A stretch of DNA of 64,000 nucleotides from an uncultured delta proteobacterium (GTDB taxonomy: Bacteria > Desulfobacterota > Desulfomonilia > Desulfomonilales > Desulfomonilaceae), in assembly GCA_963789265.1 (NCBI GenBank), contig CAWBKB010000005.1, forward strand, positions 352,001-416,000. Direction: 5' to 3'. The position numbers were made by a program, and so were the translations under genes. Shown one piece after another: positions 24,773-54,620 of this stretch. A model generated the notes under the pieces. It was not told where the DNA came from. It ran no database searches and saw only the letters and a program-made list of their open reading frames with translations. How positions within the stretch are numbered: position 1 is the first letter of the stretch; each line of letters starts with the position of its first letter.

Positions 24773-24857
24773 GTTAAGCACCTTTATTTCCACTCGGAAA
24801 ATGGATTATTTGTCACATCTCGACCAAGGATCAACAAGGCGTCACTTGGCCGCCTTT

Positions 24858-26896: not shown

Positions 26897-28107
26897 GAGC
26901 TTCTTTCCTCCATCGTAATAACCCCCCGAGGGCATTCATAGGCGCAGATGCCGCAGCCCTTGCAGTGATCCAGGTCAACCACTACGGAGGTTTCGTGCTC
27001 ATCCGGCCGGATGCTGGCGTCGGGACAAAACGAGACACACTCCAAGCACAGGTTGCAGGTTCCGCAGGACAGGCAGCGCTGCGCTTCCTGCAGAACCCGT
27101 TCTCGGTCCCATACCTCCTCTCGCTTGGTTTTTGCCTCTGGGGCCACGTCAGATACCAGCAAGCGCTCAATCTTTACGTCTCGCACTTTCACCGGCTGCC
27201 GGGGTGGATCGGGATTCGGTTGTGCGAGGCCTTGTTGCCCAGAAGGCATGACAAGACAACCGAATGCCTTCTGGGCCGTTAGACGACCCATGGCAATGTA
27301 ATGGGCAATCATTCGCGGTTTGAAGGGGGTCAGGTTTTTCGGCAAAATTGGAGCGATGATGTCGCCGCTTACACTTGAGTCATCAAAAGGATCAAAAGCA
27401 ACCGCTCTGGCAGGAATGGTAAACTTTTCTGAAATGCAGGTCGGATCCAAAATCGCCAGGTCAGCCTTTGACAGCTGCTCGCCAGGTGCATCGAAATCGA
27501 TTACAGCACCGGGTTCAAGTTTTATGTCGGCCAGAAGGATCAGGCGCTTGATCTCGTCGTCCAGAACCTGCGGCTCGATTTTTTCCGGTGAAAGATCAAG
27601 AAGCGCTCCCCCCACCCGATCGCCCGGATCCATGATAACGACCTGACATCCCCCCAAACTCAAAAAAAATGCACAGGACAGGCCAAGCGGACCGGAACCG
27701 ATGACCATCACCCGTCGATCTGTTGTTTTACTTCTCTCAATCTTTACCTTTGTGCCGATGTCCGCCAGAAACTGCTCGATCTTCTGAATCGATAGTGCTT
27801 GATCGATTTTTTTCCGAACGCATTTTGTCTCACAAGGGTGATAGCAGAGACGCCCGGTCAGGCCTGGCAACGGGTTATGCGACAGCAGGAGAGCGAGACC
27901 TCTTTGAACGTTCCCATTTCTTAGGACACTCAGATAGCTGGAGATCGGAATACCGGCTGGGCAGTTATGGCTGCAGGGCGCCAGTTTGTTCCTGACTAGC
28001 GGTGTTAGATAACGCCAGTCACCGGTGTCGTTCCAAGCCATGGTCCCAATGGTGGACGGCATTGTCGGAAGTTCCGACAGACTTTGAATTATTTTCTCAG
28101 GCTGCAT
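26893..28107 (-). CDS. GltD/DsrL-like FeS flavoprotein fused to a delta-type ferredoxin
   Basis: TGDWRY..PCSHNCPAG, GRLCYHPCETKC, IGSGPLG, RCLSCGTCNLCLECVSFCP, CKGCGICAYECP. Confidence 0.8.
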   Translation of the reverse strand: MQPEKIIQSLSELPTMPSTIGTMAWNDTGDWRYLTPLVRNKLAPCSHNCPAGIPISSYLSVLRNGNVQRGLALLLSHNPLPGLTGRLCYHPCETKCVRKKIDQALSIQKIEQFLADIGTKVKIERSKTTDRRVMVIGSGPLGLSCAFFLSLGGCQVVIMDPGDRVGGALLDLSPEKIEPQVLDDEIKRLILLADIKLEPGAVIDFDAPGEQLSKADLAILDPTCISEKFTIPARAVAFDPFDDSSVSGDIIAPILPKNLTPFKPRMIAHYIAMGRLTAQKAFGCLVMPSGQQGLAQPNPDPPRQPVKVRDVKIERLLVSDVAPEAKTKREEVWDRERVLQEAQRCLSCGTCNLCLECVSFCPDASIRPDEHETSVVVDLDHCKGCGICAYECPRGVITMEERSS

Positions 28108-30004: not shown

Positions 30005-30079
30005 TGGTAGGCGGGAGAGGATTTGAACCTCCGACCCCTGCCGTGTGAAGGCAGTGCTCTCCCCCTGAGCTACCCGCCC
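30005..30079 (-). tRNA. tRNA-Val (anticodon CAC)
   Basis: GGGCGGGTAGCTCAG..CTGCC-TTCACAC-GGCAG..GGTTCAAATCC..CCCGCCTACCA cloverleaf with encoded CCA. Confidence 0.97.
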
Positions 30080-30092
30080 AGTAGTTTCAAAA

Positions 30093-31388
30093 CTACACTT
30101 CTATTGCCTCTTTTGTCAAGGGGTTAGTCTCACGCGAAAGTGATTTTTTTGCCTTCCGCTCAGATTTTGCGTACTCCTTGCGTACCTTTTCCTTATCACG
30201 TTCCAACAACACCTCTTCGACAAAATCCAACTCTGTCCAGCCGTTGTCAAAGGTCATTTCATCCGCGGCTTTTAGGAGTTGTTCATCTGATGCCCTAATA
30301 TAGCGGTCTTCAACAGACCTCTGAGATGAATGACCGACAATGAGATTCCTGATCGTATAGTCCATACCTGACCGCTGGGCGTTGGTTTTCCAAGAGTGCC
30401 GAATATCTCTAATCTGTAGTCCTTCGAGCCCAGACAATTCCACAGCCCGTGACCACGCCTTACGAATCATAAAACGGTCAATCGGCTTTCCTTGGTAAGT
30501 GCCGCAATGATTTTTGTATTGACCCGAATAAGTGAAAACAAGACCCGTAGCACGGATGACGTTTTCGCTATCTTCCCTACGAATCGACTCAAACAAGTCC
30601 ATAATCTCTTTTCTCAGAGGCACTCGTTTGGGTTGTAGTCTCAGCCTCTTGGCACTCTTGCCCTCTTTGGTAGCATTTGGGGGTAATATAACCATCCGAC
30701 GCTCGGGCTTAAACATCTCCCATTTCACATTCACCACCTCGCCGAACCTCATCCCCGTGTAGTACATCACAGTAACTATGTCCTTGAGCCACGATGAGTG
30801 CTGTAACAGGAGCCTGAAATCCTTCCAAGAGACGTAATTGTCCCGCTGCGTTTCGGGTAGCCGGCCAATCATCCGGCAGGGATTAAAGTCAAGATTTTCT
30901 AATTCCACCTGAACCCGAAATATTCCTGACAGCGCTGAGAGCTCTCTGTTGACCGTAGCATTCTGAACCTTCTCCAAGCGAGATTTACGATACTGCTTTA
31001 TCTGGGGGACCTTGATTTCGACGAGGGGGCACCCACTGCCAAAGTATTCGACCAGACGGTCAATGGCATAAACGTTCCTCTCTCGCCCATGCTTTTCGTC
31101 TGCATCCAGATATGCCTTAATCGCTTTCACGAGGGTCAACTCCTCCTCGGGTACAGGAACCTGAAGTTCGGGTGGCAACCTCCATCCCTTGTTTTTAAAA
31201 GTACGCAAAACAAAGTCCAGTTCCTCTGGGTTAAGATGGTCAAAACGGTAAATCCTGAAAGCAGTTCTCACGGCTTTGTCTATTCGCTTGGCCGCGGTCT
31301 CATTTCGAGCGGTCGTCACCGTCCTGATTGGATGTCCTTGCCATTTGAAGTATACATAGAACCGCTCTCCTATTCTCATTACTGCCAC
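30093..31388 (-). CDS. Tyrosine recombinase/integrase
   Basis: ATVNRELSAL, YYTGMRFGEV, RDIRHSW, IVGHS, DRYI; ends 13 bp before the tRNA 5' end. Confidence 0.92.
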   Translation of the reverse strand: MAVMRIGERFYVYFKWQGHPIRTVTTARNETAAKRIDKAVRTAFRIYRFDHLNPEELDFVLRTFKNKGWRLPPELQVPVPEEELTLVKAIKAYLDADEKHGRERNVYAIDRLVEYFGSGCPLVEIKVPQIKQYRKSRLEKVQNATVNRELSALSGIFRVQVELENLDFNPCRMIGRLPETQRDNYVSWKDFRLLLQHSSWLKDIVTVMYYTGMRFGEVVNVKWEMFKPERRMVILPPNATKEGKSAKRLRLQPKRVPLRKEIMDLFESIRREDSENVIRATGLVFTYSGQYKNHCGTYQGKPIDRFMIRKAWSRAVELSGLEGLQIRDIRHSWKTNAQRSGMDYTIRNLIVGHSSQRSVEDRYIRASDEQLLKAADEMTFDNGWTELDFVEEVLLERDKEKVRKEYAKSERKAKKSLSRETNPLTKEAIEV

Positions 31389-31882: not shown

Positions 31883-32710
31883 TCAGCACTTAACCCACAC
31901 AGATTCAGTGCGGGCTTGTTTTTTCTTGCCCGACCCGTTCGTAGCAGAGCAGGCTACAACGTTACACGGGACCTTAAAATCATGCCTTTCCCATCCTGCT
32001 TTTTCCAATGGCTTGTATATGGGATTGGCGTAACCAGACAGCATGAACTTCCCCTCTAAGCCCAGGAGAAGCTCGACCAGGTCTCCGTGATCCTGATCAG
32101 TCATCTCATGGCAATAGTCTTTGGTTGTCTTCCGAGTTGAATGTACATAAGGCGGATCGAGGTAAAAGAACGTGTTCGGAGTATCATATCGCTTAATGAC
32201 CGTGCGAAAGTCCTCATGATCAACCTGTACGGTCTGCAGGCGCTCGTGTATCTCAGGTAACCGGTCGATTGCTGACAGATAAGCACTCACAAGCTGCGCC
32301 ATACCCTTTCTTCCCTCCCTGATGGAATAGCTGAAACTCTGCCCAACCGCACTGTAGCTCATCCTCATTGTAATAAACCAACGATGCGCCTTATGCACAT
32401 CGTCCGAAGTCTCCTTCCACGTGTCTCTGAAACGAAAGAACTCCTCACGGCTGTACGGCGTGAGAGAAATAAGCCGGACTAGTTCTTGCCACTTATTATC
32501 GTCCCTCAATACCCGGAAGAAATTCACGATGCCTGAATCAAGGTCGTTTATCACTTCAACCGGAGAAACATCCTTTGCGAAAAACAAGGCAGCCGATCCT
32601 GCGAAGACTTCCACATATGTCTGATGTTCAGGAACCAAGGGTAATAATTTGTTGAGAAGCGGGGTTTTGCCTCCATACCTTTTCAGAGGCGATTTCAATT
32701 TTCCTTGCAT
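31883..32710 (-). CDS. Dam/D12-class N6-adenine DNA methyltransferase
   Basis: RYGGK, YVEVFAGSAA, EVINDLD, FFYLDPPY. Confidence 0.92.
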   Translation of the reverse strand: MQGKLKSPLKRYGGKTPLLNKLLPLVPEHQTYVEVFAGSAALFFAKDVSPVEVINDLDSGIVNFFRVLRDDNKWQELVRLISLTPYSREEFFRFRDTWKETSDDVHKAHRWFITMRMSYSAVGQSFSYSIREGRKGMAQLVSAYLSAIDRLPEIHERLQTVQVDHEDFRTVIKRYDTPNTFFYLDPPYVHSTRKTTKDYCHEMTDQDHGDLVELLLGLEGKFMLSGYANPIYKPLEKAGWERHDFKVPCNVVACSATNGSGKKKQARTESVWVKC

Positions 32711-32976
32711 AATTCCTCCACAAGGGGAGGAACACGAAAATAATTCAGTCATCTATTCAAGCAAGCATTGTCGTTATCCTTTCATGTAAGTCAGTATCTT
32801 AAGTCCAGGTCAAATCTGTGTTTCGTGTCCTTCCTTTTTTGATTTTGTTGTTTTTTGATTGGAGCCTCAGTACGTGGGGCTCGGTGTTGATAGCCTGAGG
32901 AATCCCGCCTAGCGGGTTGCCCCCGAGGCGCTGAGTTAGGAAAGGTCTCTGGAACTCCCTTTATACCGCCTTCTCA

Positions 32977-33828
32977 TCAATCTTCGTTTCCTGCATCATA
33001 CTCATCCTCATCCACATCGAAATTGCTCAGGGACTGGAGATACATGTCGATTGCCAGTTCCACATGATATTGAATTGATTCGCCCAAGTCCCTCAGCGCC
33101 CTGTAGTGTTCCGGCGCAAGGGTGACGGTCATATCATCCGTAGGCTCGGACTGGGAATCTTCTGATACAAACGTTTCCTCACTTGTATTTTCAGAGTCCA
33201 GGGACGGTGCTTTTAAAGATTTCTCGGAGGCTTTTGCAGCCTTCCGTTTCTTCTGCGTCTCCTCATACCCCTTGTTCACGCTCATCTCACCGTTCTTAAC
33301 GGCATCTACTGTCTCTGAATCACCGTGATCCATAATCGTTCGCATCCTCTCCGTCTTACGGGAACTGGTTCCCAGTAATTTTGCAGTTGACTCTGAGGAT
33401 TTCCCGGCAGCACCGTTTGGCGCTCCGGCAAATTTTCCGTCTTCATTCCGTTGGGGCACATAACGATCATCGATGATCTCCATGTAAGAAAAGAGTTCCG
33501 CATCGGTCAGTTGGCGACGATGGCACTGGAGCTGGATTGCATGCTCTATGGCTGCCGCTTCGTCATCATAATAGTATTCGTAGACAGGGACTTCCTTGAT
33601 TCCGGCATTTTTGGCGGCTTGCAAGCGGGTGTGCCCGTCAATGCAGACCAGCTCATCCTGTCCTTCCCATTTGGCTACTACGATCGGCTGGGATTCATCG
33701 TACTTCCAATCCCTCATATCCTCTTCGATTATGGTCAATAATTCGGGTCGTATCGGAAACAGGGCTTCGAAGCTCTTGTGTGTCTGTATTTCTGCTGGAT
33801 TCATCGTCTCGATTGTTATTTCGTTCAT
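32977..33828 (-). CDS. ParB/Srx N-terminal-domain protein with HTH
   Basis: PIVV..IDGHTRLQAA, HRRQLT, TAKLLGTSSRKTER. Confidence 0.8.
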   Translation of the reverse strand: MNEITIETMNPAEIQTHKSFEALFPIRPELLTIIEEDMRDWKYDESQPIVVAKWEGQDELVCIDGHTRLQAAKNAGIKEVPVYEYYYDDEAAAIEHAIQLQCHRRQLTDAELFSYMEIIDDRYVPQRNEDGKFAGAPNGAAGKSSESTAKLLGTSSRKTERMRTIMDHGDSETVDAVKNGEMSVNKGYEETQKKRKAAKASEKSLKAPSLDSENTSEETFVSEDSQSEPTDDMTVTLAPEHYRALRDLGESIQYHVELAIDMYLQSLSNFDVDEDEYDAGNED

Positions 33829-33841
33829 CGTACTCACCTTA

Positions 33842-34165
33842 TTAATTTGATTTTGCCGCTCTATCATCTCGGACTTGCGCCCGGCGGCATTCAAAAAGCG
33901 GAGAGTTGGCTGGTACTTTGAGTAGCCATTCGAGGTAACGGTCGCCGTCGAATATTTCCAAGGTGCGCTCCAAGTAATCTGCCGCTCTGTTTACTTTTTT
34001 GGAGATGGACTCCAGATTCTTTTCTATGGAAGCAGTTTTATCAGGAGTCCCCATTCCGAAACCCGTTTCCACAAACAAATCTATGAGGTCGTCTATTCTC
34101 ATGGATGTTTCTCTTAAATTTCCCAGTAGTTCTTCAACTCGGGACATTGCCTTACGTGTCGCCAT
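33842..34165 (-). CDS. Hypothetical protein (107 aa)
   Basis: RBS AAAGGAG; first gene of the leftward element operon. Confidence 0.6.
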   Translation of the reverse strand: MATRKAMSRVEELLGNLRETSMRIDDLIDLFVETGFGMGTPDKTASIEKNLESISKKVNRAADYLERTLEIFDGDRYLEWLLKVPANSPLFECRRAQVRDDRAAKSN

Positions 34166-36338: not shown

Positions 36339-37424
36339 CTAGTGTCCTGTCCCATTAATAAGTTTGCATATTTTCTCGACCTTTCTAAGGATTGAATCCG
36401 CTGTGGCCGTCCACACGAAAGGTCGTGCGTCTTGGTTATAGTTCTTCACGAAGTCTTCAATGCGTTCAACGAGTTGTTTGGTACCTGTAAAGGACCCTCG
36501 AACTATGGCCGGCTGGGAGATTACCCCAAACCATCGTTCGACCTGATTAAGCCAGGATGCATACGTAGGTGTGTAATGAACGGAAAATCTAGGGTGGCTG
36601 GCGAGCCAGTTTTTGACCTTGTGGTGCTTGTGAGTGCAGTAGTTGTCTACAATAAGGTGCACGTTGAGGTCAGCCGGTACGTTTTTGTCCACCCGTTTGA
36701 GGAAACTAAGGAACTCCTGATGCCTGTGTCGCTGTTTACACTCTGTGATCACTTGCCCGGTTGCCACGTCCAAAGCTGTAAAGAGCGTGGTGGTGCCATG
36801 GCGAAGGTAGTCATGGGTGACTCCGTCCACATACCCGAGCCCCAAAGGCAACACAGGTTGACTACGCTCCAGAGCCTGGATCTGGGTCTTCTCGTCCACA
36901 GACAGTACCAGGGCCTTGTCCGGTGGATTCAGGTACAGTCCCACAATATCCCGAACTTTTTCTACAAACTGAGGGTCCGTAGAAAGCTTAAACGATTTAG
37001 TGAGATGCGGCTTAATACCAAAAAGATCCATATACCTTTGCACCGCACTCTTGGAGATTCCGGTCGAGCGCTCCAGACTTCTCATAGTCCATCGATTCCC
37101 TTGCGTCGGAGCGGTCTCCAGGACTGTTTGCAGCAATTGCGCTACCTTCTCGTCGTCATGATCCCTGGGCCGTCCCGGACGTTGCTCCCCATACAGCCCC
37201 GCAAGTCCCTGCTCGAGAAAACGCCTTCGCCAATGGGTTACCGTGCCACCGGATATCCCCAAACGCTGGGCAATAGACGTGTTCGATTCTCCTTCGGACG
37301 AGGCCAGAATGATTTGCGCCCTACGGACAACCCCGTGCCGCGACGTTCGAGATCTGGTCAAATTCTGCAACTCTTTACGCTCCAAATCCGAAAGGACGAT
37401 TTCCTGTTTCTTGGGACGCCCCAT
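36339..37424 (-). CDS. IS630 transposase
   Basis: VDEKTQIQAL, HDYLRHGT, IVDNYCTHK, SWLNQVERWF. Confidence 0.95.
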   Translation of the reverse strand: MGRPKKQEIVLSDLERKELQNLTRSRTSRHGVVRRAQIILASSEGESNTSIAQRLGISGGTVTHWRRRFLEQGLAGLYGEQRPGRPRDHDDEKVAQLLQTVLETAPTQGNRWTMRSLERSTGISKSAVQRYMDLFGIKPHLTKSFKLSTDPQFVEKVRDIVGLYLNPPDKALVLSVDEKTQIQALERSQPVLPLGLGYVDGVTHDYLRHGTTTLFTALDVATGQVITECKQRHRHQEFLSFLKRVDKNVPADLNVHLIVDNYCTHKHHKVKNWLASHPRFSVHYTPTYASWLNQVERWFGVISQPAIVRGSFTGTKQLVERIEDFVKNYNQDARPFVWTATADSILRKVEKICKLINGTGH

Positions 37425-37512
37425 AAGCTTTCGTGCCTCCCTCAGTGATGAGTGGGCACGAATGTAGCAGAAGTCCCTCGCTTTCGTGAGTTATTTGTGG
37501 GACAGGACACTA
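36340..37512 (-). mobile_element. IS630-family insertion sequence
   Basis: TIRs TAGTGTCCTGTCCCA / TGGGACAGGACACTA with TA duplication; inserted in the TAG stop of the IHF gene. Confidence 0.92.
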
Positions 37513-37794
37513 GCCTTCATTCATGGCACTTTTAAACCGGGGCGAGTACTTCCACGTAACAACCCTGCGGGCATTCAACAGCATGGGCTCGCCAGTTTGG
37601 GGGTTCCTGCCACGACGAGCCCTCTTATCCTTCACAGACCATTTCCCGAAGCGAGAGATCATAACCTCATCCCCAGCGACAAGCTGTGCCTTCATGATAC
37701 CGAGGAGTTTTTCTAAGATCTCTTCCGCTTCCCCCTTCAGGAAACCGCAATCACCGGCGATTTTCTTTGCTATATGTGCCTTGGCAAATGTCAT
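37510..37794 (-). CDS. Integration host factor alpha-like protein
   Basis: ISRFGKWSVKDKRARRGRNPQTGE. Confidence 0.88.
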   Translation of the reverse strand: MTFAKAHIAKKIAGDCGFLKGEAEEILEKLLGIMKAQLVAGDEVMISRFGKWSVKDKRARRGRNPQTGEPMLLNARRVVTWKYSPRFKSAMNEG

Positions 37795-38223
37795 GACAAC
37801 CTCCCCAAATTTCATTTTAAGTGGCATAGAGGGTTTAGAATAGCAGAAATGTGACCTTAAAGGCAATGATATCAGGATATTCTTACAAGCAGACTCGTGA
37901 TGATCATGACAGAGCACTCGGACACGGTCAGTCGGAGTGGACAACTTATCAAAACCACCCTGTCCAGCTCACCGCCACGCTGGTTTACGGTTATCGAATG
38001 CATTTTCTCCGGGCGAATGAAATACGGGACTTCTCACGGTACTGTAGCTTGCCTTCTCGCGTTCTCAGAACCCCATACGCGAACGTTCCTGGTTTTGAAC
38101 AACTTAGCATACTCCTAACCAGAAAATCGCGGAGAATCGTTCTGAGGTGCCTTCTGATTCGCGTCTCGCGGACGACTCGGGTCTGTGATAAACTGCCGGG
38201 AACACCTGATCGAGAGTTGCCCT

Positions 38224-38845
38224 ATGAGTGACGAACAAGACCTAAATTCCCAGCGCACGCGAATAATGGAAATCTGGCACGAGTACGGTCAGACCTTTAA
38301 TGCCTTCGTGCCCGAGGAACAACCATTTCCTGAGGAATGGGAACCAGATTTGCCGGCACCGGATGAAAAAGGTCGTCTCAGCCCGTAGGCCCTTAAGCAC
38401 TGGGAACAGCTCTTTCCTACAAAAGAATTCCTCCGCCAGCGCTATGCAGAGCACCACATTCTGGGAGGGCCTTCTCTGAACTTTGACTGTTTGGTCCCCA
38501 AATTCCAGAGGCGCATGGTCAACCGTGTAGCCGAAGACGAGTATGGAAATCCCTTGCATATCCCCGTTCGGGATTGCCACGAATGGTATGATTCGGCTTT
38601 ACGGATCGGTATATTTCAATGGCAAGTCGGTTTTTCTTGCCGTTCTGTACTGTGCCAGCGCAAGTGGTGCAAGCTCCATCGAGATAACCCCGCCCGTATT
38701 TCCGCGAGCCGCTTGGCGGGGAGGATTAATTCCGAGATCCTCAAGAGGAATCGTGCTCTTTCAACTGAGGAACAACAAGCACTTGTCAACGAAAACCTAG
38801 CGCAGGAATACATTGATCACTTTCATAGCCGGTATCCCGCCGTGA
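38224..38845 (+). pseudogene. Internally deleted initiator::polA fusion relic
   Basis: 5' part paralogous to the 46482 gene (TAG at 38386 where the paralog has CAG); from ~38700 paralogous to the PolA segment ISPAGLCGKVN..YIDGFHSRY. Confidence 0.85.
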
Positions 38846-39148
38846 GAGGGCACTGCCGCCATAAACAATATCAAGAGCTTGCGAAAAAACCCCAGACATT
38901 TCGAGCCCTGTTGATCCCTTTCGGTCCTTTTCGGTCCCTCACGGTCCCTGAAAATGTTAACACCATGTTAACAAGGAACCTGGCAACTCCCACTCGCGAC
39001 CTCCGGCGTGACAGGGCGTGGCCCTCCGTAGTAAAATCAACAACATATCCAGGAACCCGAGTCATCTCGTCCCCAGGGGAGCAATCCGGATTGAAGTCTA
39101 GAATTCTACGTGATTCTTATGCCAAAAAAACCCTCGTATAGCGACAAA

Positions 39149-40313
39149 TCAGGCACTGACATACAGTTTCGTTAATACGAACTCTCTGTGCCCGAGGGCC
39201 TCGGCGGCCGTCAATCGCCCGTTTGCAGTCCGAACGATCATTTCAAGTAGCTTGTCTCCCGCCTGATCCAAAGTCATCTCACCCCGGAGAATGGCGGAAA
39301 CGTCCAGATCGATATGTTCACTCATAGGTACTGCATGTGAGAGGGTTAGCGGACAATTTTATCACGGGGAGAATAGGATTCCCTATGATGTTTCCCTGTC
39401 CGGTGGGGAACAGATGTACCACGGCACCGGATGCAGCCCACAGGGTGACGGCTTCTGCAGCAGCAGAAGAGGTATCCATATACCATAATCCTTTGCCCTT
39501 CGGGGCCTCGGCAGGCTTGAGCACCCCTACGTACCGTGCCTTCTTGCCGATCTTCTGGAGGTTTCCGAAAGCCTTCTCTTCTATGGTCGTCAGGCCTCCC
39601 CGGATATTCCCCTTGGTGGGCTGTGAACCTGACAGATCATCGGTCTTGAACTTCACGATAATGTCGTCGTAGGCATTCCAAACTCTCATGAATTCCTCGC
39701 CCACTTCGGGCGTGGCGGCACGTTCTTTACAAACGTGCTCTGCACCGGTAATCTCCGATGTCTCGCCAAAGCAGGTGGTCGCGCCCATATCTACAAGCTT
39801 GTCTATGGCATTCCCCACCGTGGGATTCGAGGCAAGTCCGGAAGTTGTATCCGATTCGCCGCACTTGACCGAGACATATAGCTCGTTGAGATGGCAGTCA
39901 GTTTTCGGCAGTTCCGTAGCCCAGTGGACGTATTCTTTGGCCTGACGTGAAGCTGCGGCAATCGTGGTGATATCGCCACTGCGTTCAATGGAGAAACCCT
40001 TAACGGGTTTACCAGTTTTTGCTATGCCCTGGACTATACGATCCGTCCATTCAGGCTCGATACCGATTACTACCACTGCAGCAACGTTCGGGTTTGAGCC
40101 GGTTCCTATAATCGTCCTGAAGAACAGTTCGAGATCCTCACCGAATTGCAGACGGCCATATGCGTGAGGAAGGGCCAGTGTACCTTTTATGTTGCTTGCC
40201 ACTGCTTCACATGCCGCATTGGACAAATCGTCCAGAGGCAGAATCACAACATGGTTACGGACACCGACACGCCCGTTTTCTCGACGATAACCTGAAATTT
40301 TTGGTTTATCCAT
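39149..40313 (-). CDS. suyB: Sulfolactate sulfo-lyase beta subunit-like, frameshift at ~39327
   Basis: [44 protein letters not shown]-terminus [26 protein letters not shown] in the next frame. Confidence 0.8.
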
Positions 40314-40315
40314 TG

Positions 40316-40594
40316 CTACCACCTCTTTGTTCTGAGATTCTGAGTGTGAACGTGTTCGCCCGCTCGAATATCCGTTGTAACTACGCCAATGTCATGACCG
40401 TATTTGATTACGGTATCACCGGCTTTAAAATCTTTGAGGGCGATTTTGTGCCCAAGCGGGATGGGGTTCAAAACCTTGACTTGAAGAATCTCTTGAGAAT
40501 CCATAAATAATCCCTCGGCGTTCTCACCGGCATTCATATCCATGGTGACCACACCAACGGAATCGGATTTCTCATGCACCAGAAAATTTATCAT
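40316..40594 (-). CDS. suyA: Sulfolactate sulfo-lyase alpha subunit-like (SAF domain)
   Basis: [42 protein letters not shown]. Confidence 0.8.
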
Positions 40595-41746: not shown

Positions 41747-42560
41747 GCCTATCTGGATGACTCGTCTTACCCCAATAGGTTGTGGGGCAGTCGTTTATTG
41801 ATCCCACCCCGGATTTGGTGAGAGTTTTGTACAGGCCCCTTGATAAGTCCCTGTCAGCCAACGTTTCAACAGAGAAGCCACTCGGCTCACCCTGGGCAGA
41901 AGGTTGTCTCCCATATCCACTCTCTTGCGTATCTTCTTATGGCGATAACCATGTACCGCTCGCGGTGAGTAACCTGACCAGCCATCAGTTTGTACCGCGC
42001 TTTCTGGCTCCACACACTGTTCTATGGCCGGAAAGAGACTTGAAGAGAGTGCATCGGCTACCCGAAGAAGCCGAATACGTCTGATCCTCCGGCCGTCCTG
42101 TTCTGCAGCTATCAGGACCAAAGCCTTGACACCAGCTTCTCGAACGTAAGTCCCTTTCACGCCGCCCACGTATATCTCGTCATCCTCTGTTGTTCCCGAT
42201 AGACGGTCTCGTCCCGGGCGAACCATCGCACGTCGAAGTTTGTGCAGCCCTGGCCACGCCGTTTCGTAGCTCCCCAGCCCCAGGGACCACTTTCAGGTCC
42301 AAGGCGCTCATATCCTGCTTCTGGGTTGTCACATACCACATTGCGCGGAATCATAGTGGCAGAGACTTCTTTGTGTCCTGGAAAACCGTGCCAACCAGGC
42401 GTGGGATGGTTTCCAGAAGCCCGAAATGTTTGCCGTGTCTGCTCCCACAAGATCGGACAGAGACAGAAACGTTGTCCTGTTACCGATAAAGCCTGTAGTT
42501 CCCAATTTCTGAGGGCGCCAGAGGCGTCTTGCTAAGATTCCTTTGAAAAATGCAGCATGC
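41747..42560 (-). mobile_element. Degenerate IS1595-family element
   Basis: DEIYVGG, QTDGWSGY, LPRVSRVASLLKRWLTGTYQGA; several frameshifts. Confidence 0.8.
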
Positions 42561-43153: not shown

Positions 43154-43278
43154 ACGCTACACTCGCCGACCAAAGCTTGTCGATTGTCCCCGTCGGGGAA
43201 CGGGAGAACACCCTCGTCTTTAGGCGAAGATTGCAATAGGTCCGCAGTGCTGAAAACGTTGGACTGGTCACATATTCT

Positions 43279-43421
43279 CCGGAATTATGCGGCGGTCTTG
43301 TCATTCTGGGGCCTGTGCCCTGGAATCCTCTCTCCGCAGTGTCCCCCTTACACCGGAAAAGACCCAGATTGGCCCCTCAAGAAACAGGAGGATGGCAAAA
43401 TCGTCGTCACGTTCCCGAAAA
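43279..43421 (-). repeat. ~140 bp dispersed repeat, copy D
   Basis: Reverse complement TTTTCGGGAACGTGACGACG...ACCGCCGCATAATTCCGG. Confidence 0.7.
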
Positions 43422-43521: not shown

Positions 43522-44451
43522 TTATACTTTGCCATCCTGATCTCCCTCTCCCATGCGCCGGGCACTGTGAGTTTCCACTAGGAAGACCGCAAGCGTGGAG
43601 GCAGCACCAACAGCCAGTTTTGCATGTCTCGATTCGAGGCCTTTGCTTCTTGCCTCCTTTCCATGACCCGTACCATACTGGTTTCGCAACTCTGCAATCC
43701 CCTTAGTAATTGACGCAAGATTGCTCAGCAGGCGTTTGATTGTTTCCGAAGCTTTTGTTCGATCAGGAATATCTTCAGGCGTCAACTTGAGGTGTTTGGT
43801 CGTTAATTTTACCAACTGTGGCAGATCTGCGCTATCGGGTACCGGAACCTCGCACTCAGTCAATATGGTCTTGCAGCAGGACTCCACCAACTCCTTCGAG
43901 GTTCCAATGGCAAGTGCAGGATCGCTCTCCACGGCCGTTTCCATTCGAGTGATCTGCTGGGATACGTGAGCTGAGTCGGCGACTAACGCAGCCGCACTAA
44001 CTGCTGCGAGTCCCGGGGTCGTTACAACGCCTATATAGCGGCCCACGAAGACTGGCTTCCTCGAAAGCCGCATTTTTTCTATGATCTGAAAACCATCGCT
44101 CTTGAGGTGACCGTTGTACATCTGAACAAGCCTTTCCGCCTCTTCAACGTCCGGCCTCACGATCGGATGGACGGTTTCGCAAAGAAACCGTAGAACGGTC
44201 TCATCTTCGCAGCCCAGCAGATTGAACCGGCCATCGTAAAAAATCCAATCACTCTGCCAGTCATCGTTGTTGATCGTGTGTTGGACAATGTCTCCGTAAG
44301 CATTGTGGAACCGGTGATCACGGGAAGGAAGACTTTTCAGATCAAAAAGCCGCGACAAGAATTCAAGACCCTCAAGCCGACCGGCCCAGTGGCTTCCACT
44401 CAGAGACAGTGCGTCAAAGATGTCACGTCTGGTAACCTCACTGATCTTCAT
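43522..44451 (-). CDS. Abortive-infection protein (AbiJ-NTD3 + Abi_C/HEPN)
   Basis: ISEVTRRDIFD..GRLE..FLSRLFDL..FLCETVHPIVRPD; C-terminal LRNQYGTGHG..RHAKLAV. Confidence 0.85.
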   Translation of the reverse strand: MKISEVTRRDIFDALSLSGSHWAGRLEGLEFLSRLFDLKSLPSRDHRFHNAYGDIVQHTINNDDWQSDWIFYDGRFNLLGCEDETVLRFLCETVHPIVRPDVEEAERLVQMYNGHLKSDGFQIIEKMRLSRKPVFVGRYIGVVTTPGLAAVSAAALVADSAHVSQQITRMETAVESDPALAIGTSKELVESCCKTILTECEVPVPDSADLPQLVKLTTKHLKLTPEDIPDRTKASETIKRLLSNLASITKGIAELRNQYGTGHGKEARSKGLESRHAKLAVGAASTLAVFLVETHSARRMGEGDQDGKV

Positions 44452-44769
44452 TTTTTCACTCGCATGCGAGAGAGAGGCGTTGCCGTTTCCATGGACCAGA
44501 AGCCTTGCCTAATGCTGTCGGCGGTTATATCCCAGACCTTGAGGCGGCGCAAGCCACACTTTGGCCGCGGTATCTGGTCGCTCCGTGTCCAAGAATGCGA
44601 AAACTACAATGCGGACCAGGTGAGCGGCTGTCCGCGTGGATAATTCCTAACAAATATGATAGCGTAGGGTCCATGCCTGATACCACTGGGTGACTGCAGG
44701 CCTTGGCCTGTCATGTGAGCAAGTCTAGAACATGTTGGTCAGAAATTGGGGCTTGAGGAGCTTAGTACG

Positions 44770-45795
44770 ATGCGAGTTAGATTTTCTGTTGGAGAATTGG
44801 CCAACATCTTGAGCGAAACCGTGGGGTTCAAATCTGGATTGGCGCTGACTAGATCCGCATTGTTTGAATTAGTCGCAGGCGAGTCGGCTTACGCCAATCA
44901 GCTTGATTTGCCTGCTTACGAAACGATTGTCATGCGAGGAGAGGAATTTGACGAAATATATTACTTGGTTCTCTACAAATTAGGGGTAACAGATTCACCG
45001 ACCCCGACATCTCCCTTGGATTTCAATCTCTTTACGAGGTACAAAGATAAACCAAAGGAACTGGAAACGTTTTTGGGGGTGCAACGAATTTATGCAGAGG
45101 TCGCACGCGAGGAAATACATAAAGTCGAACTGACAGGAGAGGGGTCACTAGATCCAACAGAGTTCATTAAACGCTCTGCAAATAAGTTCGGGTCCCTGGG
45201 ACTTGAAATGGCCATGGAAACTATTCAAGGAGTGAACCACCATCTCAATCTTCATCCATTTTCGTCATTGCGCCGGGTCGAATGGAAAGAAATCCGAGAC
45301 TTGGAAGATCTATTCCTGAGCGAGAATATTCGTGCCGAACAGGGCAAATTTTTTGATCAGAGATTCATTGATTTTCTCAACCGAAATTTCGAGCAAATCG
45401 ACAATATCAATTGGCGCCAGTTTGAGGCATTGACGGCTGAATTCTTTGACCGGCTCGGCTATGATGTTGAGTTAGGCCCCGGACGGGACGATGAAGGAAT
45501 TGACGCTAGGGTTTGGGACAAGGGAATCAGCACTGGCGGGCCACCGCTTATAGTCATCCAATGCAAGAGACAAAAAGCCAAGGTTGAAAAGGTTGTAGTG
45601 AAGGCGCTTTGGGCAGACCTTAGTGCTGAACAAGCGAACTCAGGACTTATCGTTACAACGTCAGCACTTTCACCAGGCAGCGTAAAAACATGTCGAGCTA
45701 GAGGATACCCGATTGAGCAAGCAAATCGAAATAATTTAAGGAAATGGCTAGACCAATTGAGGACCCCTTGGTTTGGTGCCTTCATGGACGAGTGA
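44770..45795 (+). CDS. Mrr-like restriction endonuclease
   Basis: WRQFEALTAEFF..GYDVELGPGRDDEGIDA..IQCKR..GLIVTTS. Confidence 0.85.
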   Translation: MRVRFSVGELANILSETVGFKSGLALTRSALFELVAGESAYANQLDLPAYETIVMRGEEFDEIYYLVLYKLGVTDSPTPTSPLDFNLFTRYKDKPKELETFLGVQRIYAEVAREEIHKVELTGEGSLDPTEFIKRSANKFGSLGLEMAMETIQGVNHHLNLHPFSSLRRVEWKEIRDLEDLFLSENIRAEQGKFFDQRFIDFLNRNFEQIDNINWRQFEALTAEFFDRLGYDVELGPGRDDEGIDARVWDKGISTGGPPLIVIQCKRQKAKVEKVVVKALWADLSAEQANSGLIVTTSALSPGSVKTCRARGYPIEQANRNNLRKWLDQLRTPWFGAFMDE

Positions 45796-46253: not shown

Positions 46254-46481
46254 CACATTCAGTAACCAACCTCCGAAAGCTAGCTCAACGCATTTTTCCT
46301 CCAAATCTTCGAAAAACGGCCATGCTAAGACATACCCCAATCCGTAACGTCGCTCAGAATCCATTCTAGATCCCTTATGGGACGAATCTCGCGGCCGATT
46401 ACGCCCACAGAAAACACGGTTCCTCAGCATGCCTTGCTTGTGCTAAAGTGAGCGACAACTATTCAAGTGTCGGGCGCCGCA

Positions 46482-47537
46482 ATGAACTCAGAGGAAGATC
46501 CCAAAGACACGGACGATCAAAGAGACGACTTGCTCAAGCAGTGGCACGAGTATGGGAAGAACTTTTCCGCCTTCGTGCCCGAGGAACAGCCTTTTCCCGA
46601 GATCTGGGAACCTGAAATTCCCGAGGCTGATGACAAGGGCCGCCTTCATATCCAGGCGCTAAAGCACTGGCAGCACCTGTTCCCCACTAGGGATTTCCTA
46701 CGCGACAGATATGAGCAATACCATATCTTGGAAGGCCCTTCTCTCCAGTTTGATTGTCTGGTTCCTAAATTTCAAAACCGCATGTATTACCGGGTCGTGG
46801 AAGATGAGTACGGCAATCCCTTGCATATTCCTGTCAAAGATACCCCTGAATGGTATCACTCCGCCCTGCGGATTGGAATATTTCAATGGCAGGTCGGGTT
46901 TTCGTGCCGCTCCGTGTTGTGCCAACGCAAATGGTGCAAACTCAATTTGGATAACCCGCAACGGATGAGCCCGATAGATATATACAGTCTGATTGATCTC
47001 TTCGAGGCTCGCGGGCCGGGCCAAGCCATGTCCATAGTGTCAAAATGGTTTGGCGTGAAGCTCAAGCGTCCTGGATCCAAAGGAACTGCTCAGGTCCAGG
47101 GTTATAGGCACTCGGTGTCAAAGCAGGCAGTATATGACCTATTTTCCCGATACGCCAGCATGAGACACTAACATGTTGAGGGTTTCATCAAGGAGGCGGT
47201 GGACCTGATAAAGGGTTCCCAGTTGGTACCCTGGCACGGGCGACTCTTTAATGCTGAATATGCTTTCTTAAGCAAAAAAGTAGTCAGCAACCTCTACCGT
47301 ATCAAGAGTCCCGCGGCCAAGGCTTATCTTTGGTTGCTCATACAGCAGGAGGAGACATCCCGAAACACCAGGGTCAAATTCAGTGCTACGGATGCGCAGT
47401 TGGCACAAGGGCTGGGAGTAAGCAAGACCACGGCGACAAAATACCGGGAGCAATTGCAAGGGTTGGGGCTGTTGAAGGCCCAAGCGGAAAGGGTCGGCAA
47501 AGTAGTTGAGATCAGGATCAAAAGTGCGAAATACTAG
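46482..47537 (+). CDS. Putative replication initiator (Cys-rich primase-ZBD-like region + C-terminal winged HTH) with an in-frame TAA at 47169-47171
   Basis: ORFs 46467 and 47199 share a frame; FSCRSVLC..PIDIY..AMSIVSKWFGVKL; KAYLWL..TDAQLAQGLGVSKTTATKYREQLQGLGLL. Confidence 0.6.
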
Positions 47538-47756
47538 GCCCCTACTTCAACTTGGCGGTGTCGAGGTCTTTTTGTAGGCGGGTACTACAAAATCCCTCTT
47601 CACATACCAATTATTAGTTATGCTAGATATCTTCATAGCTGATAGCCTTCGCTCTGTGGTGCCCTTAGTCCCTCCCGCCTCAGTTGCCCTGGTGATACCT
47701 CACCCTCTCTGAAAGACTATATATATGACTTAGCTTATCAATACGAGTATTTCTGA

Positions 47757-49427
47757 ATGAATGTCCCAGAGCTTAAATCCTTACTTACGCATAACAAAGA
47801 GCCTATAGCCGTAACAGCTCCTTTGATCTTACAAAATACTGCACTTATTGGCTTATACACTTCAGTTGGAGACTCTTACTGTGCAGAACTGCCTACCAGT
47901 GAGCTGAAACAAATAGGAGAATTACTGTACCAGCCTAAACGCTTTCCGATCACAGTCCACGGCTTAAAACGTATTTGGGAGTTCCTTGACCTTAACACCG
48001 ACGAGCTGGATCTCAAGCTCATTACTGATACTAAGCTCCTAGCGTACCTGCTCGATCCTGACGCCGGCGAGACTAACGGATTGACGCTTACGCATTTGGC
48101 TTATCAGTATTTGGGAGAGGAATACCCGCATATTGCCAGTGAAGTACAGGATAAGGGCGTGCTCAAAGCTTTAAGAAAGAGCCTGATGCGGGATGCCCAA
48201 GCAATCTGGTCCCTTGGTAAAGAGCTGCCACAACATATGTCCAAGGATCTGCTCAGGGTGTATCACCACCTGGAGCTGCCTTTAGTGGTCGGTACTGGAC
48301 CGTATGCGGAGAGTCGGAATAGGAGTTGATGGCGCTGCGGCTGTACAAAGTCAGAAGCCGCATTGTTAAAGAAATTGCCGAACTGGAACAGCGGATTACT
48401 GGCGGCGAGAAGCCTAACCTTATGTCTCCTTCTGAGGTATTCCAGTTGTTAATGAGACGCGGGGTCCGCTTTAAGAGTGAGTTCGTGTACGCTGTGCATA
48501 AGGTAATGACGCCTGCACTGGAGGAAATTAGCCACGTCTATCCTGTTGTTCAGGACTTACTCAATTGGCGAAGCAGAGTTACGGATTTGGCTTTTCTCCA
48601 CAAAGCTGCCGGTCAGATTCGGGTCCATCCTATTTGGCAGCAAACTCGTGCCGGGACTTCCCGCATTTATGCCCGTGATCCTGCAGGTACAGAATGTGAG
48701 TCGAGCTCTTCGTGAAAACATATTAGTTCCGGCTCCGGGAAAGGTACTCGTGAAAGCGGACTACTCACAGGCACAGCTACGGATTCTGGCGCACCTGTCC
48801 GGAGATCCTGCTCTGATTGATCTGTACCAACGAGGAGGAGATGCCCATGCTGAGACGGCTAAAATCCTGGACATTGACCGTGATGCTGCTAAAGAGGTGA
48901 ATTTCGGTATCTGTTTCGGCATCTCACCGGCAGGCTTGTGCGGCAAGGTCAATGCCGTCATAGCCAAAAAGAATCGTTCATTGGCCGTGGGAGAGCAAAC
49001 GCCATTGATCGACGAAGGGACAGCTCAAGCTTACATTGACGGCTTTCATTCACGGTATAGCGGTGTGCAGGACTTTTTCGAGAAGGAATGGAGGAAACTG
49101 AAAGCCCTTCCCATGGAGCGTCGTTCGGTGAAAAGTCTCCTGGGCAGAATCAGGCGATTTGATACCCGAGCGAATCCGGCTACCCAGCGGAGCTTTAGAG
49201 TGACTTGGCCGCAGCAAATAGAAGCTGATCTGATAAAGACGGCCATGGTACGCCTTGATTGTATTTTTACGAAGCGCAAGACGGGAGCACGAATTGTGAT
49301 GATGATCCATGATGCCTTGTGGGTCGAGGCACCGCACGCAGAAGCTGAACAGGTGAGGCACCTGCTAAGAAAAATGATGACCGCGATAGGCAAACTCAAG
49401 GTTCCTCTGGAAGTGGACCTCAAGTAA
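47757..49427 (+). CDS. Divergent stand-alone family A DNA polymerase (exo-like + pol domains, no 5' nuclease), three +1 frameshifts
   Basis: DTKLLAYLLDP, LELPL..VLDRMRRVGIGVD, motif A ADYSQAQLRILAHLSGD, motif B RDAAKEVNFGICFG, motif C IHDAL; extra bases at ~48291, ~48348, ~48686. Confidence 0.88.
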
Positions 49428-49860
49428 CCACCTTCAAGCCTCTGTCGATATCCCGCTTAGGGTGCCTTTTTGAGATAATTCGCTTTGTTTGATCTTCACC
49501 CGCTCTTGCCATTGATCTTCCAGTACCGAAGCTGATTTGTAATTTTTCCACCGATACAGAATAGGTGCGTCTCTCGATGGTGAACCGAAAGGGTACGGCG
49601 AAGATCTTCCTATGACGCGCGTTTCTCGCGCAACCAGAACGCCGTAGACGCGCGGAGGCAATTTACGGATACTCTGCCATACCCCGAATTAGAAAATCGC
49701 GCATTTCGCGGCTCAGGTGGCCTATAAGCGATGTCTTCTTTTGCTGGTTATCGAGGCTGTTCAGCAAGGGTCTAGCGAACCCGGCTTACCGTGCACCCAG
49801 AAAAATTAGATTGACCGTGGCCTGAGCAGTAAGGTACTTTCAAGAACCGATATAAGAGCC

Positions 49861-49997
49861 CTTTTCAGCAACATGACGGTTTTGCCTCGGTTGGGTTTTG
49901 TGGAAGGAGATAAGGGGCCTTCTCGGGACCCAGGGAGCCCCTGGCCCCTCATTGGCACCAAGACGCCCGAAATGGCAAGACCGCCGCATAATTCAGG
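49861..49997 (+). repeat. ~140 bp dispersed repeat, copy A
   Basis: TTTTCAGCAACATGACGG..GGAAGGAGATAAGGGGCCTT..CCGCATAATTCAGG. Confidence 0.75.
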
Positions 49998-51078: not shown

Positions 51079-51320
51079 GTCGATACGTGAAATGTGTCGC
51101 CGGCTGGCTTCTTTTCACTTCTTGAATTGGGGCCGCGGGGCAGACAGGGAGATGACGGACACCCAAAGGGATGGTATGCTGGAAAACGGCCTGAAATGAG
51201 GTATCTTATGCACTGATGAACCAACCCGTCTACGTTGAGCTGATTGCAAGAACTAGAAAGGCCTTCTGAGTCGGATTCCGGTCTAATTTCCGGGTCCGTA
51301 CAAAAGCAGGAAGAATGTAG

Positions 51321-51465
51321 CTTTTTCAGCAACGTGACGGCGGTCTTGCCTCTATCGGGTCTTGTGGGAGGAGATACGGGGCCTTTTCGAGGTTACGGGA
51401 TCAATCCCTTGATCGGTCATCTGCCCCATGACACCCAAAATAGCTGGACCCCCGCATAATTCCGG
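51321..51465 (+). repeat. ~140 bp dispersed repeat, copy B
   Basis: TTTTCAGCAACGTGACGG..GGGAGGAGATACGGGGCCTTTTCGAGGT..CCGCATAATTCCGG. Confidence 0.75.
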
Positions 51466-54393: not shown

Positions 54394-54476
54394 CTGCACG
54401 CGGGAGGCTCGCCCTACAAACGCTGACGCCTCCCCGCGAGACAAGTTAAGACCTTAGTTTAAAAGGAGAATACAGG

Positions 54477-54620
54477 CTTTTTCATCAAGCTGACGACGGT
54501 TTTGTATTTGTCAGGTCTGGTGGGAGGAGATACGGGGTCTTTTCGAGGTCAGAGAAACCATCACTCACCCTTTACTGGCAATAATACGCACAACATAGCA
54601 ATAACGCCGCATAATTATGG
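54477..54620 (+). repeat. ~140 bp dispersed repeat, copy C
   Basis: TTTTCATCAAGCTGACGACGG..GGGAGGAGATACGGGGTCTTTTCGAGGT..CCGCATAATTATGG. Confidence 0.75.

Follow-up and report, generated by a model that had tools for sequence, protein, structure and literature searches.

An undescribed family A polymerase and its partner protein carried on a plasmid and genomic islands of Desulfomonile-like bacteria

We examined a stretch of 64,000 nucleotides (the window) from an uncultured delta proteobacterium of the family Desulfomonilaceae (GenBank assembly GCA_963789265.1, contig CAWBKB010000005.1, positions 352,001 to 416,000 of the forward strand). The window contains a gene resembling DNA polymerase I (Pol I, or PolA) with an altered active site and, upstream of it, a gene for a second protein that we call the partner. 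The two belong to an undescribed polymerase and partner family that is carried on a plasmid and on genomic islands of Desulfomonile-like bacteria. On balance, the evidence leans toward reading the window locus as a decayed instance of the two-gene module that sets apart an undescribed clade of family A polymerases, and the pair as a mobile-element replication module with a remodelled sugar pocket, comparable to CCPol-MP from staphylococcal cassette chromosome mec (SCCmec). A preliminary description of this DNA, made from the sequence alone, had proposed an active enzyme of altered specificity. The proposal holds insofar as the altered motifs are a family signature under selection and not decay; it does not hold for the window copy, which is not active as assembled.

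The motif A glutamate and its hydrogen-bond partner, the motif B tyrosine, are treated as invariant in family A polymerases and form the textbook basis of sugar and base selection; in this entire natural clade other residues stand in place of the two, and the motif C glutamate has been exchanged as well. The clade is therefore a natural experiment on how far the active site of Pol I can be remodelled, and it may yield enzymes able to accept ribonucleotides or RNA primers. The window copy, being a dead remnant, matters less than the family, which is open to experiment: Desulfomonile tiedjei DSM 6799 has been brought into culture and has the pair on a plasmid.

Altered active-site motifs define a clade of family A polymerases

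The polymerase gene of the window lies at positions 47757-49427 and, together with every feature inside it, reads on the forward strand; it is full length, contains three insertions of one nucleotide each and is a pseudogene as assembled. Motif A reads DYSQAQLR (48759-48782), with alanine in place of isoleucine and glutamine (codon CAG, 48774-48776) in place of the steric-gate glutamate, while the catalytic aspartate is retained. Motif B, the O helix, reads RDAAKEVNFGICFG (48879-48920) and has phenylalanine for tyrosine; its arginine, lysine and first phenylalanine are kept. In motif C, IHDALW (49305-49322), the glutamate that follows the catalytic aspartate has become alanine and the aspartate itself is preserved. 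The preliminary description had read all three motifs in this way and had stated that both catalytic aspartates and the arginine and lysine of motif B are retained, and the window sequence bears it out on each point. The C-terminal piece of the gene matches the Pfam domain DNA_pol_A (PF00476) with 151.2 bits against a cut-off of 34.3; this score, the two catalytic aspartates and the O-helix arginine and lysine place the gene, on sequence grounds, in family A.

A phmmer search against 1.84 billion representative sequences returned 17,179 hits at E<=0.001, 20 of them at E<=1e-30. The best hits outside the clade are canonical Pol I proteins of about 900 amino acids with about 40-45% identity, and these carry DYSQIELR and VHDE. 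A search with the intact protein of a related locus, L001, listed 120 clusters and more than 100 distinct sequences, and a scan of one genome per species located 25 related loci (L-numbers below), nearly all in Desulfomonilaceae-like metagenome-assembled genomes (MAGs). The host range of the clade comprises the Desulfomonilaceae and relatives, and its proteins are named "DNA polymerase" or "DNA polymerase I" in databases. The pieces designated M2 and C stand in a single frame at eight loci (L001, L003-L006, L008, L011 and L012), and six loci (L001, L003, L005, L006, L008 and L012) have a nearly full-length open reading frame (ORF).

In order to count residues we aligned 87 full-length sequences, namely hits of 535-620 amino acids from the L001 protein search plus ten clade members from phmmer; shorter fragments were excluded. 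In family A polymerases the motif A glutamate and the motif B tyrosine are described as universally conserved and hydrogen-bonded to each other (PMC3715850), and the clade departs from this rule at both positions, with glutamine in all 87 sequences at the first and phenylalanine in 81 (tyrosine in six) at the second. The residue before the motif A glutamine is alanine in 76 of the 87; in motif B, lysine is invariant, arginine is found in 85 sequences, and phenylalanine occupies position B3 in 86. After the motif C aspartate there is alanine (61 sequences), serine (21), cysteine (4) or glycine (1), and never glutamate. T7 RNA polymerase, for comparison, has serine after its motif C aspartate and no motif A glutamate. 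The catalytic aspartates of motifs A and C are each present in 87 of 87, and the equivalents of H734, Q849, R668 and R841 show little or no variation. The clade is set apart in a tree of 128 sequences, where all 14 of its members have the glutamine. We do not regard the altered motifs as chance, because the triad recurs throughout the full-length members of a distinct clade.

The ratio of nonsynonymous to synonymous substitution (dN/dS) among intact copies is 0.085-0.186, for the ten of 21 pairs in which dS is computable and unsaturated, and both genes of the pair appear from their sequences to be under purifying selection. Comparison with homologues and an estimate of dN/dS had been set beforehand as the test of the altered motifs. 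Close and distant homologues alike carry Q/F/A, not E/Y/E, with glutamine, phenylalanine and alanine or serine fixed in intact relatives down to about 35% identity, and selection on them is purifying; the motifs are therefore a selected family signature and not decay.

Single elements of the triad are also found elsewhere. Three other short or fused PolA proteins have the motif A glutamine (P0019, P0092 and L022). L022 (positions 20-2494), from a Hydrogenedentes MAG, joins a Toprim-like region, an exonuclease whose DVE Exo I motif is intact, and PolA in one protein of 824 amino acids; it has DYSQAQLR and the motif B phenylalanine, yet a canonical VHDE. The glutamine thus occurs outside the clade too, in a primase-linked PolA. 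P0091, an 899-amino-acid Pol I of canonical length, combines the motif C sequence IHDALVFE and the motif B phenylalanine with a retained motif A glutamate; the motif C change is therefore also found outside the clade.

The proofreading domain is kept in length and has lost its catalytic residues

Polymerases of the clade are about 560 amino acids long and have no 5' nuclease domain. Their N-terminal domain aligns with the 3'-5' exonuclease domain of 12 canonical Pol I proteins, and in this alignment the aspartate and glutamate of Exo I are replaced by threonine and proline, the asparagine and aspartate of Exo II by glycine and isoleucine, and the tyrosine of Exo III is replaced as well. The last aspartate of Exo III is the sole DEDDy residue retained, so that four of the five exonuclease catalytic residues are gone. 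In the window, the Exo I remnant is IAVTAPL in place of ..D.E.. (47805-47825) and the Exo II remnant is HGLKRIWE in place of.N.K.D.. (47958-47981). Pfam recognized no exonuclease domain in the N-terminal 180 residues, either in the window piece or in intact relatives. The absence of an Exo I DxE, pointed out in the preliminary description, is thus real, and the loss of proofreading that it had proposed fits the sequence; as judged from these replacements, the 3'-5' exonuclease domain is catalytically dead.

The remainder of the protein is clearly related to Pol I. Intact relatives score 198-207 bits with DNA_pol_A, and the closest solved structure is the large fragment of Bst Pol I (E 1.4e-37; family residues 91-556 to Bst residues 96-571), followed by Klenow and Taq. 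The NCBIfam Pol I equivalogs TIGR00593 and NF004397 give 232 and 249 bits, far below their cut-offs of 600 and 720, and the match starts only at profile position 357-378. In all 12 family members aligned we observed two six-residue deletions relative to canonical Pol I, one where the helix before the TGR strand ends and the other after the (P)xxQN motif. The C-terminus is shorter by about eight residues, judged from the end of the Bst alignment.

A partner protein is predicted to dock on the former exonuclease cleft

The polymerase gene is always preceded by a gene for a partner of 348 amino acids. In the window this gene lies at 46467-47537 on the forward strand and is split by an in-frame stop into ORFs 46467-47171 and 47199-47537, which correspond to residues 4-225 and 227-347 of the orthologue P0270; relatives have one ORF of about 348 codons. 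We found 106 partner homologues, almost all of about 348 amino acids and unnamed. Their layout in relatives is an N-terminal docking helix (predicted), a cluster of four cysteines and a C-terminal winged helix, with Cys88, Cys138, Cys143 and Cys148 invariant in 40 aligned sequences.

The winged helix gives weak Pfam hits to helix-turn-helix (HTH) domains, and a PHROG model annotated as replication initiation protein matches partner residues 272-337 at 2.1e-5. The AlphaFold2 model of the partner has a mean pLDDT of 85. When it was searched by fold against the PDB, nothing reached E<=0.001; the best match (0.027) covers the winged helix only, and plasmid initiator domains are among the matches. 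The same search against BFVD again returned nothing at E<=0.001, with lambda O-like and other replication initiators at E 0.002-0.02. A phage collection contained no match to the partner, and matches to the polymerase there did not exceed 31% identity.

The two proteins are predicted to form a complex. Three predictions gave an ipSAE of 0.87, 0.86 and 0.85, and the best of three controls gave 0.00; at least 86% of the contacts are common to the runs, and the partner pLDDT is at least 80. The ipSAE mark that we applied is reached by 116 of 157 solved complexes and 2 of 215 mismatched pairs, counts that are rough, since our own alignments were used. On the partner side the predicted interface is made up of residues 10-38, 59-63 and 81-83, and on the polymerase side (L001 orthologue) of residues 16-22, 64-72 and 103-142, which include the former Exo I (16-22) and Exo II (64-72) motifs. 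In the model, the former exonuclease cleft receives the N-terminal helix of the partner and the strand that follows it. A role for the upstream protein alongside the polymerase had been suggested beforehand, and the predicted complex (ipSAE 0.86, best control 0.00) lends support to this idea.

The two genes are separated by a spacer of about 220 nucleotides (47538-47756, forward strand), in which an alignment of seven sequences shows a conserved block (ACT.CAACTT ... CATACC) followed by an AT-rich stretch. Spacers of similar length are found at L001, L005, L006, L009 and L012. The spacer is possibly a promoter, an operator or an origin.

Both genes of the window pair are interrupted as assembled

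The preliminary description had treated the polymerase as one ORF, a view that was incomplete: the ORF listing and the translations reveal that the gene is not one open frame. It starts in frame 0 (47757 to about 48290), continues in frame 1 (48292 to about 48341) and then in frame 2 (about 48344 to 48685), and ends in frame 0 again (48687-49427). Head to tail, the four pieces correspond to residues 1-178, 179-192, 196-309 and 310-555 of P0152, an intact orthologue of 556 amino acids, with 83-88% identity. Relative to L013, the closest DNA relative (90% identity over 1.1 kb), the sole indels are three one-nucleotide insertions in the window. The first, a G at 48291 directly 5' of the GTAC at 48292, shifts frame 0 to frame 1, and the second, a T at 48342 directly 5' of the GTAC at 48343, shifts frame 1 to frame 2. 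The third, an A or G of ambiguous placement at 48685-48686, stands directly 5' of the GTAC at 48687 and restores frame 0.

The partner gene has an in-frame TAA at 47169-47171 (forward strand), where the two closest orthologues shown have glutamine, as does the majority of the 40-sequence alignment. Around this site the window reads SMRH, stop, HVEGF, an orthologue reads MRHQHVESF, and the alignment consensus is MRxQHV. With three frameshifts in one gene and a nonsense codon in the other, both genes appear to be inactivated as assembled, and the proposal of an active enzyme does not extend to this copy. Programmed frameshifting and stop-codon recoding were set aside, as the closest relatives are read in one frame and have CAA or CAG at the TAA site. 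The dN/dS between the window polymerase and L013 is 0.19; therefore the decay of the window copy is recent or, should the insertions be errors, has not taken place.

All three insertions in the window polymerase gene adjoin a GTAC. Three of the ten GTAC sites in the window polymerase gene bear one, as against none of the 79 sites in 24 uninterrupted ORFs (Fisher p=0.001). In L009, the polymerase frameshift at about position 5426 is likewise one base added beside GTAC, relative to the 98.7%-identical sister copy L008, whereas the shift zones of the frameshifts in L005 (second copy), L023 and L024 contain no GTAC. We rejected a window-wide GTAC artefact: removal of the base before GTAC lengthened the spanning ORF by at least 60 codons at 6 of 166 sites, compared with 45 of 1000 random positions, and none of the 79 sites in intact ORFs breaks the frame. 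The GTAC-linked insertions could be a motif-linked consensus error confined to a multi-copy polymerase gene, or they could be real scars.

Plasmid and island locations of the pair

The two genes stand side by side on pDESTI.01 (NC_018026.1), a 26.9-kb circular plasmid of D. tiedjei DSM 6799, where their annotated coordinates are 23910-24956 and 25204-26913 and the polymerase motifs are DYSQAQLR, KEINFAICFG and IHDALW. Also on the plasmid are genes for RNase HI (rnhA), ParA and a tyrosine recombinase, together with AbiE and BrxC/D-like genes. The polymerase gene is followed by about 1.5 kb (26914-26923 and 1-1506) that has no annotated gene and is a candidate origin region; plasmid positions 1486-1608 resemble a stretch downstream of the polymerase in L009. 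A chromosomal copy in D. tiedjei, P0238, is found on a 6.5-Mb contig. Many genomes have several copies, many of the copies are truncated, and many loci consist of fragments only. L008 and L009, which belong to one genome, have a 5.1-kb segment in common at 98.7% identity.

The window copy sits in a degraded island with AbiJ, Mrr-like genes and fragments of insertion sequences (IS). A tRNA-Val(CAC) gene and a gene for a 431-amino-acid tyrosine integrase occupy 30005-31388 on the reverse strand (tRNA 30005-30079, integrase 30093-31388). Homologous integrase fragments abut or are fused to a truncated PolA in L013 and L023 and lie beside tRNA-Val in L024, and tRNA-Val or fragments of it are found near the copies of the window, L006, L023 and L024. 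The island has a ParB-like gene at 32977-33894 (reverse strand), homologues of which adjoin the cassette in L005, L008 and L016. A second, heavily degraded cassette was identified at 38065-38975 (forward strand) by blastn matches to L001, L016, L002 and L006; here an N-terminal part of the partner is joined to a short PolA motif B stretch. Its repeats D1 and D4 have 73-75% identity to 46542-46953, and it is followed by sequence that in L006 adjoins a tRNA-Val fragment.

The segment 30005-38975 thus comprises the tyrosine integrase, a D12-class N6-adenine DNA methyltransferase gene (31883-32752), the ParB-like gene, an IS630-type transposase gene (36339-37424), an HU-like gene (37510-37944) and, at the far end, the degraded cassette, and it is probably an element integrated at tRNA-Val. 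A partial tRNA copy at about 38836-38860 was considered as a second border, but it is too diverged to define att sites. An Rfam search over the whole window recovered tRNA-Val only.

Between the two cassettes lie a truncated paralogue (39318-40322) of the altronate/galactarate dehydratase gene at 23263-24270 and a fragment of an IS1595-type transposase gene (41795-42226), which suggest that this stretch is decaying. Immediately upstream of the dead cassette, 43522-45795 holds an intact AbiJ-type abortive infection gene (reverse strand) and an intact Mrr-like restriction nuclease gene (forward strand). Just past the polymerase stop codon there is a conserved non-coding element of about 290 nucleotides with a GC-rich palindromic core (49452-49740). 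L001, L003, L008 and L009 also have it, at a distance of 0.8-2.8 kb downstream of the polymerase. It may represent an origin, a dispersed repeat or a small reverse-strand gene (49434-49661). A different intergenic repeat of about 150 nucleotides, without an Rfam match, is dispersed at 49856-49997, 51320-51465 and 54476-54620, inverted at 42433-42492 and 43278-43310, and is also found in L020 and L014.

A possible mechanism and the alternatives

If the pair is a replication module, the heterodimer would be the replication enzyme of a plasmid or an integrative element. The partner would dock on the dead proofreading domain, and its winged helix, closest to those of phage and plasmid initiators, would together with the cysteine cluster bring the polymerase to the origin or template of the element. 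The polymerase would then start and extend DNA synthesis without proofreading. The start could be made de novo, as by CCPol-MP, or from an RNA or R-loop primer, the latter brought to mind by the plasmid-borne RNase HI. Replication of the ColE1 type uses RNase H and Pol I. The Q/F/A triad would remove, from the surroundings of the primer end and the incoming nucleotide's sugar, two carboxylates and the hydrogen bond between glutamate and tyrosine, and should loosen sugar and base selection; the substrate specificity of the clade is something we infer from these residues. Astatke and colleagues are said to have described the role of E710 against ribonucleotides in 1998.

A bolder version of the replication reading is decidedly unlikely. 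It holds that the clade is a Pol I derivative past the sugar barrier which, with its cysteine-cluster and winged-helix subunit, would be a third, independent solution to priming. Such an enzyme would begin chains at defined sites on the template, either de novo with ribonucleotides or mixed nucleotides or else from an R-loop, and would copy small plasmids and islands without a classical Rep protein, primase or helicase; the GTAC insertions in the window and L009 would then be the footprint of error-prone starting or copying at a preferred site.

Several observations weigh against a replication module. The E710Q variant of Klenow is reported to act as a mutator that binds dNTPs weakly and incorporates at a low rate, and Y766F to be near wild type (PMC3715850), so by analogy the clade enzyme could be slow or otherwise specialised. 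CCPol is reported to keep the steric-gate glutamate and a phenylalanine that it uses against ribonucleotides (PMC7581432), where the clade has glutamine; the glutamine is therefore not needed for priming. Unlike CCPol-MP-Cch2, the cassette in the neighbourhoods scanned has neither a helicase nor an OB-fold protein. Nor is there a third conserved gene: all-against-all BLASTP of 347 ORFs at 1e-6 found none, and the flanks are varied. An integrase, tRNA-Val or ParB-like marker is present at only 8 of 26 places (25 loci plus the window). Beside parA, pDESTI.01 encodes a 401-amino-acid HTH_36 protein that could be the plasmid's own initiator, so that the pair is not the sole candidate for its replication. 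For the first 240 residues of the partner no known fold was matched (best PDB match E 0.027, winged helix only), and a primase zinc ribbon in residues 1-245 was rejected, being an Atlas lead only (0.86, about 100 shared features), with no Pfam support in 40 members at E up to 5. The scan that yielded the 25 loci partly used the altered-motif patterns and is a biased sample, and we drew the conservation counts from the phmmer and L001 searches instead. Finally, an assembly error is conceivable because all three insertions adjoin GTAC; the frameshifts could be such errors, in which case the window copy would be intact save for the stop codon in the partner gene.

The pair might alternatively be an anti-phage defence module, in which the partner, as sensor or DNA-binding protein, would keep control of a polymerase that makes a product harmful to phage or cell, in the manner of defence systems based on reverse transcriptase. 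We consider this unlikely. The AbiJ and Mrr-like nuclease genes that adjoin the window copy point in this direction, as do a Type ISP restriction domain near L012, a "GT4-conflict" glycosyltransferase near L013, and the AbiE and BrxC/D-like genes of pDESTI.01, but defence genes cluster on mobile elements anyway. PADLOC includes a PolA model linked to defence-associated reverse transcriptase (DRT) systems, and the family matches it with 101-124 bits; this match is generic, since PolA proteins outside the clade, including canonical Pol I of about 900 amino acids, score 83-140 bits, and we rejected the identification as "RTasPolA" as general PolA likeness. The partner matches no PADLOC model, and in the selection of neighbours scanned we noticed no reverse transcriptase or effector beside the pair. 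[quoted passage not shown]

A cellular polymerase for damage tolerance or mutagenic repair, similar to the actinobacterial APEX (PolA2), with the partner as regulator or targeting factor, is in our view very improbable. Such a role would agree with the dead exonuclease and with the reported mutator behaviour of Klenow E710Q (PMC3715850), and APEX enzymes are themselves described as PolA proteins with an inactive exonuclease that coexist with Pol I (PMC10201439, PMC12926913). However, the location on a plasmid and islands, the several copies per genome and the frequent decay are unlike a housekeeping repair gene; position B3 is phenylalanine in 86 of 87 sequences and not the leucine reported for APEX and CHEAP; and the clade is not actinobacterial.

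We judge it similarly improbable that the polymerase is a pseudo-enzyme, one no longer able to catalyse efficiently, whose main role is that of a DNA-binding scaffold for its partner. In the structure-search alignment a template-contacting asparagine, which we take to be N845 in E. coli numbering, is replaced, and the motif C glutamate is gone as well. The low incorporation rate reported for Klenow E710Q (PMC3715850) would also suit a scaffold. Yet the two catalytic aspartates, the O-helix arginine and lysine, and the equivalents of H734, Q849, R668 and R841 are kept, which is hard to explain without catalysis.

Least credible by far is that a dying gene owes its altered motifs to decay or read error and that its ancestral enzyme had the canonical E/Y/E: the three frameshifts of the window copy, the stop in its partner gene and the many truncated relatives would agree with it, but the triad is fixed in intact relatives and on the plasmid of a cultured organism, dN/dS is 0.09-0.19 among intact pairs and 0.19 for the window copy against L013, and the 87-sequence signature and dN/dS refute it.

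Comparison with known polymerases

Our literature searches found no description of the clade. The main text of PMC10201439, which covers 19 PolA clusters, does not contain "Desulfo" or "Deltaproteobacteria", and the main text of PMC12926913 (PolA1, PolA2, PolA3 and PolA1-like) has no Desulfomonile-type enzymes; the supplementary sequence sets of either paper may contain the clade. With canonical Pol I (Klenow, Bst, Taq) the polymerase domain has about 40-45% identity, from which the clade is distinguished by the lack of a 5' nuclease, equivalog scores below cut-off, the two six-residue deletions and the shorter C-terminus.

APEX (PolA2) and CHEAP enzymes resemble the clade in being extra PolA proteins beside Pol I that lack a 5' nuclease, and APEX likewise has an inactivated exonuclease, as reported by Czernecki et al. 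2023 (PMC10201439) and in a 2026 NAR paper (PMC12926913). In contrast to the clade, with its phenylalanine, both have leucine at B3, and APEX is described as restricted to Actinobacteria (PMC10201439); no partner is known for APEX. The TV-Pol proteins are family A-related polymerases of mobile elements that were predicted to prime and extend (Iyer, Abhiman and Aravind 2008, PMC2579912). According to that account they consist of a minimal catalytic core recognizable by profile methods only and are typically linked or fused to D5-like helicases, whereas the clade is an obvious relative of Pol I with thumb, fingers and an exonuclease-like domain, and no helicase is linked to it.

The closest parallel is provided by CCPol-MP and the PolA-SSB pairs. 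CCPol-MP is described as an A-family polymerase with a partner on its exonuclease remnant, with primase activity and a de novo start (PMC7581432; PMC10061031). Common to these systems and the clade are a Pol I-derived A-family polymerase on a mobile element with a recombinase nearby, and an adjacently encoded second protein on the remnant of the 3'-5' exonuclease that supplies DNA binding, the docking in the clade being predicted from a model. Rice also reports that primase-competent PolA proteins and T7 RNA polymerase have a shorter last thumb helix (PMC10061031), which may correspond to the clade deletion before the TGR strand, a comparison made by description and not on structures.

The systems also differ. 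The partner of the clade is encoded upstream, has 348 amino acids and carries a cysteine cluster and a winged helix, whereas the others have a small OB-fold SSB encoded after the polymerase. The exonuclease domain of the clade is whole in length but dead, and that of CCPol is truncated. The hosts are Bacillota, with SCCmec staphylococcal (Bebel et al. 2020, Rice 2023), as compared with Desulfomonilaceae for the clade. The predicted docking on a dead proofreading cleft parallels CCPol-MP, but with an unrelated partner. If this is true, mobile elements have on more than one occasion remade Pol I as a two-subunit enzyme of initiation.

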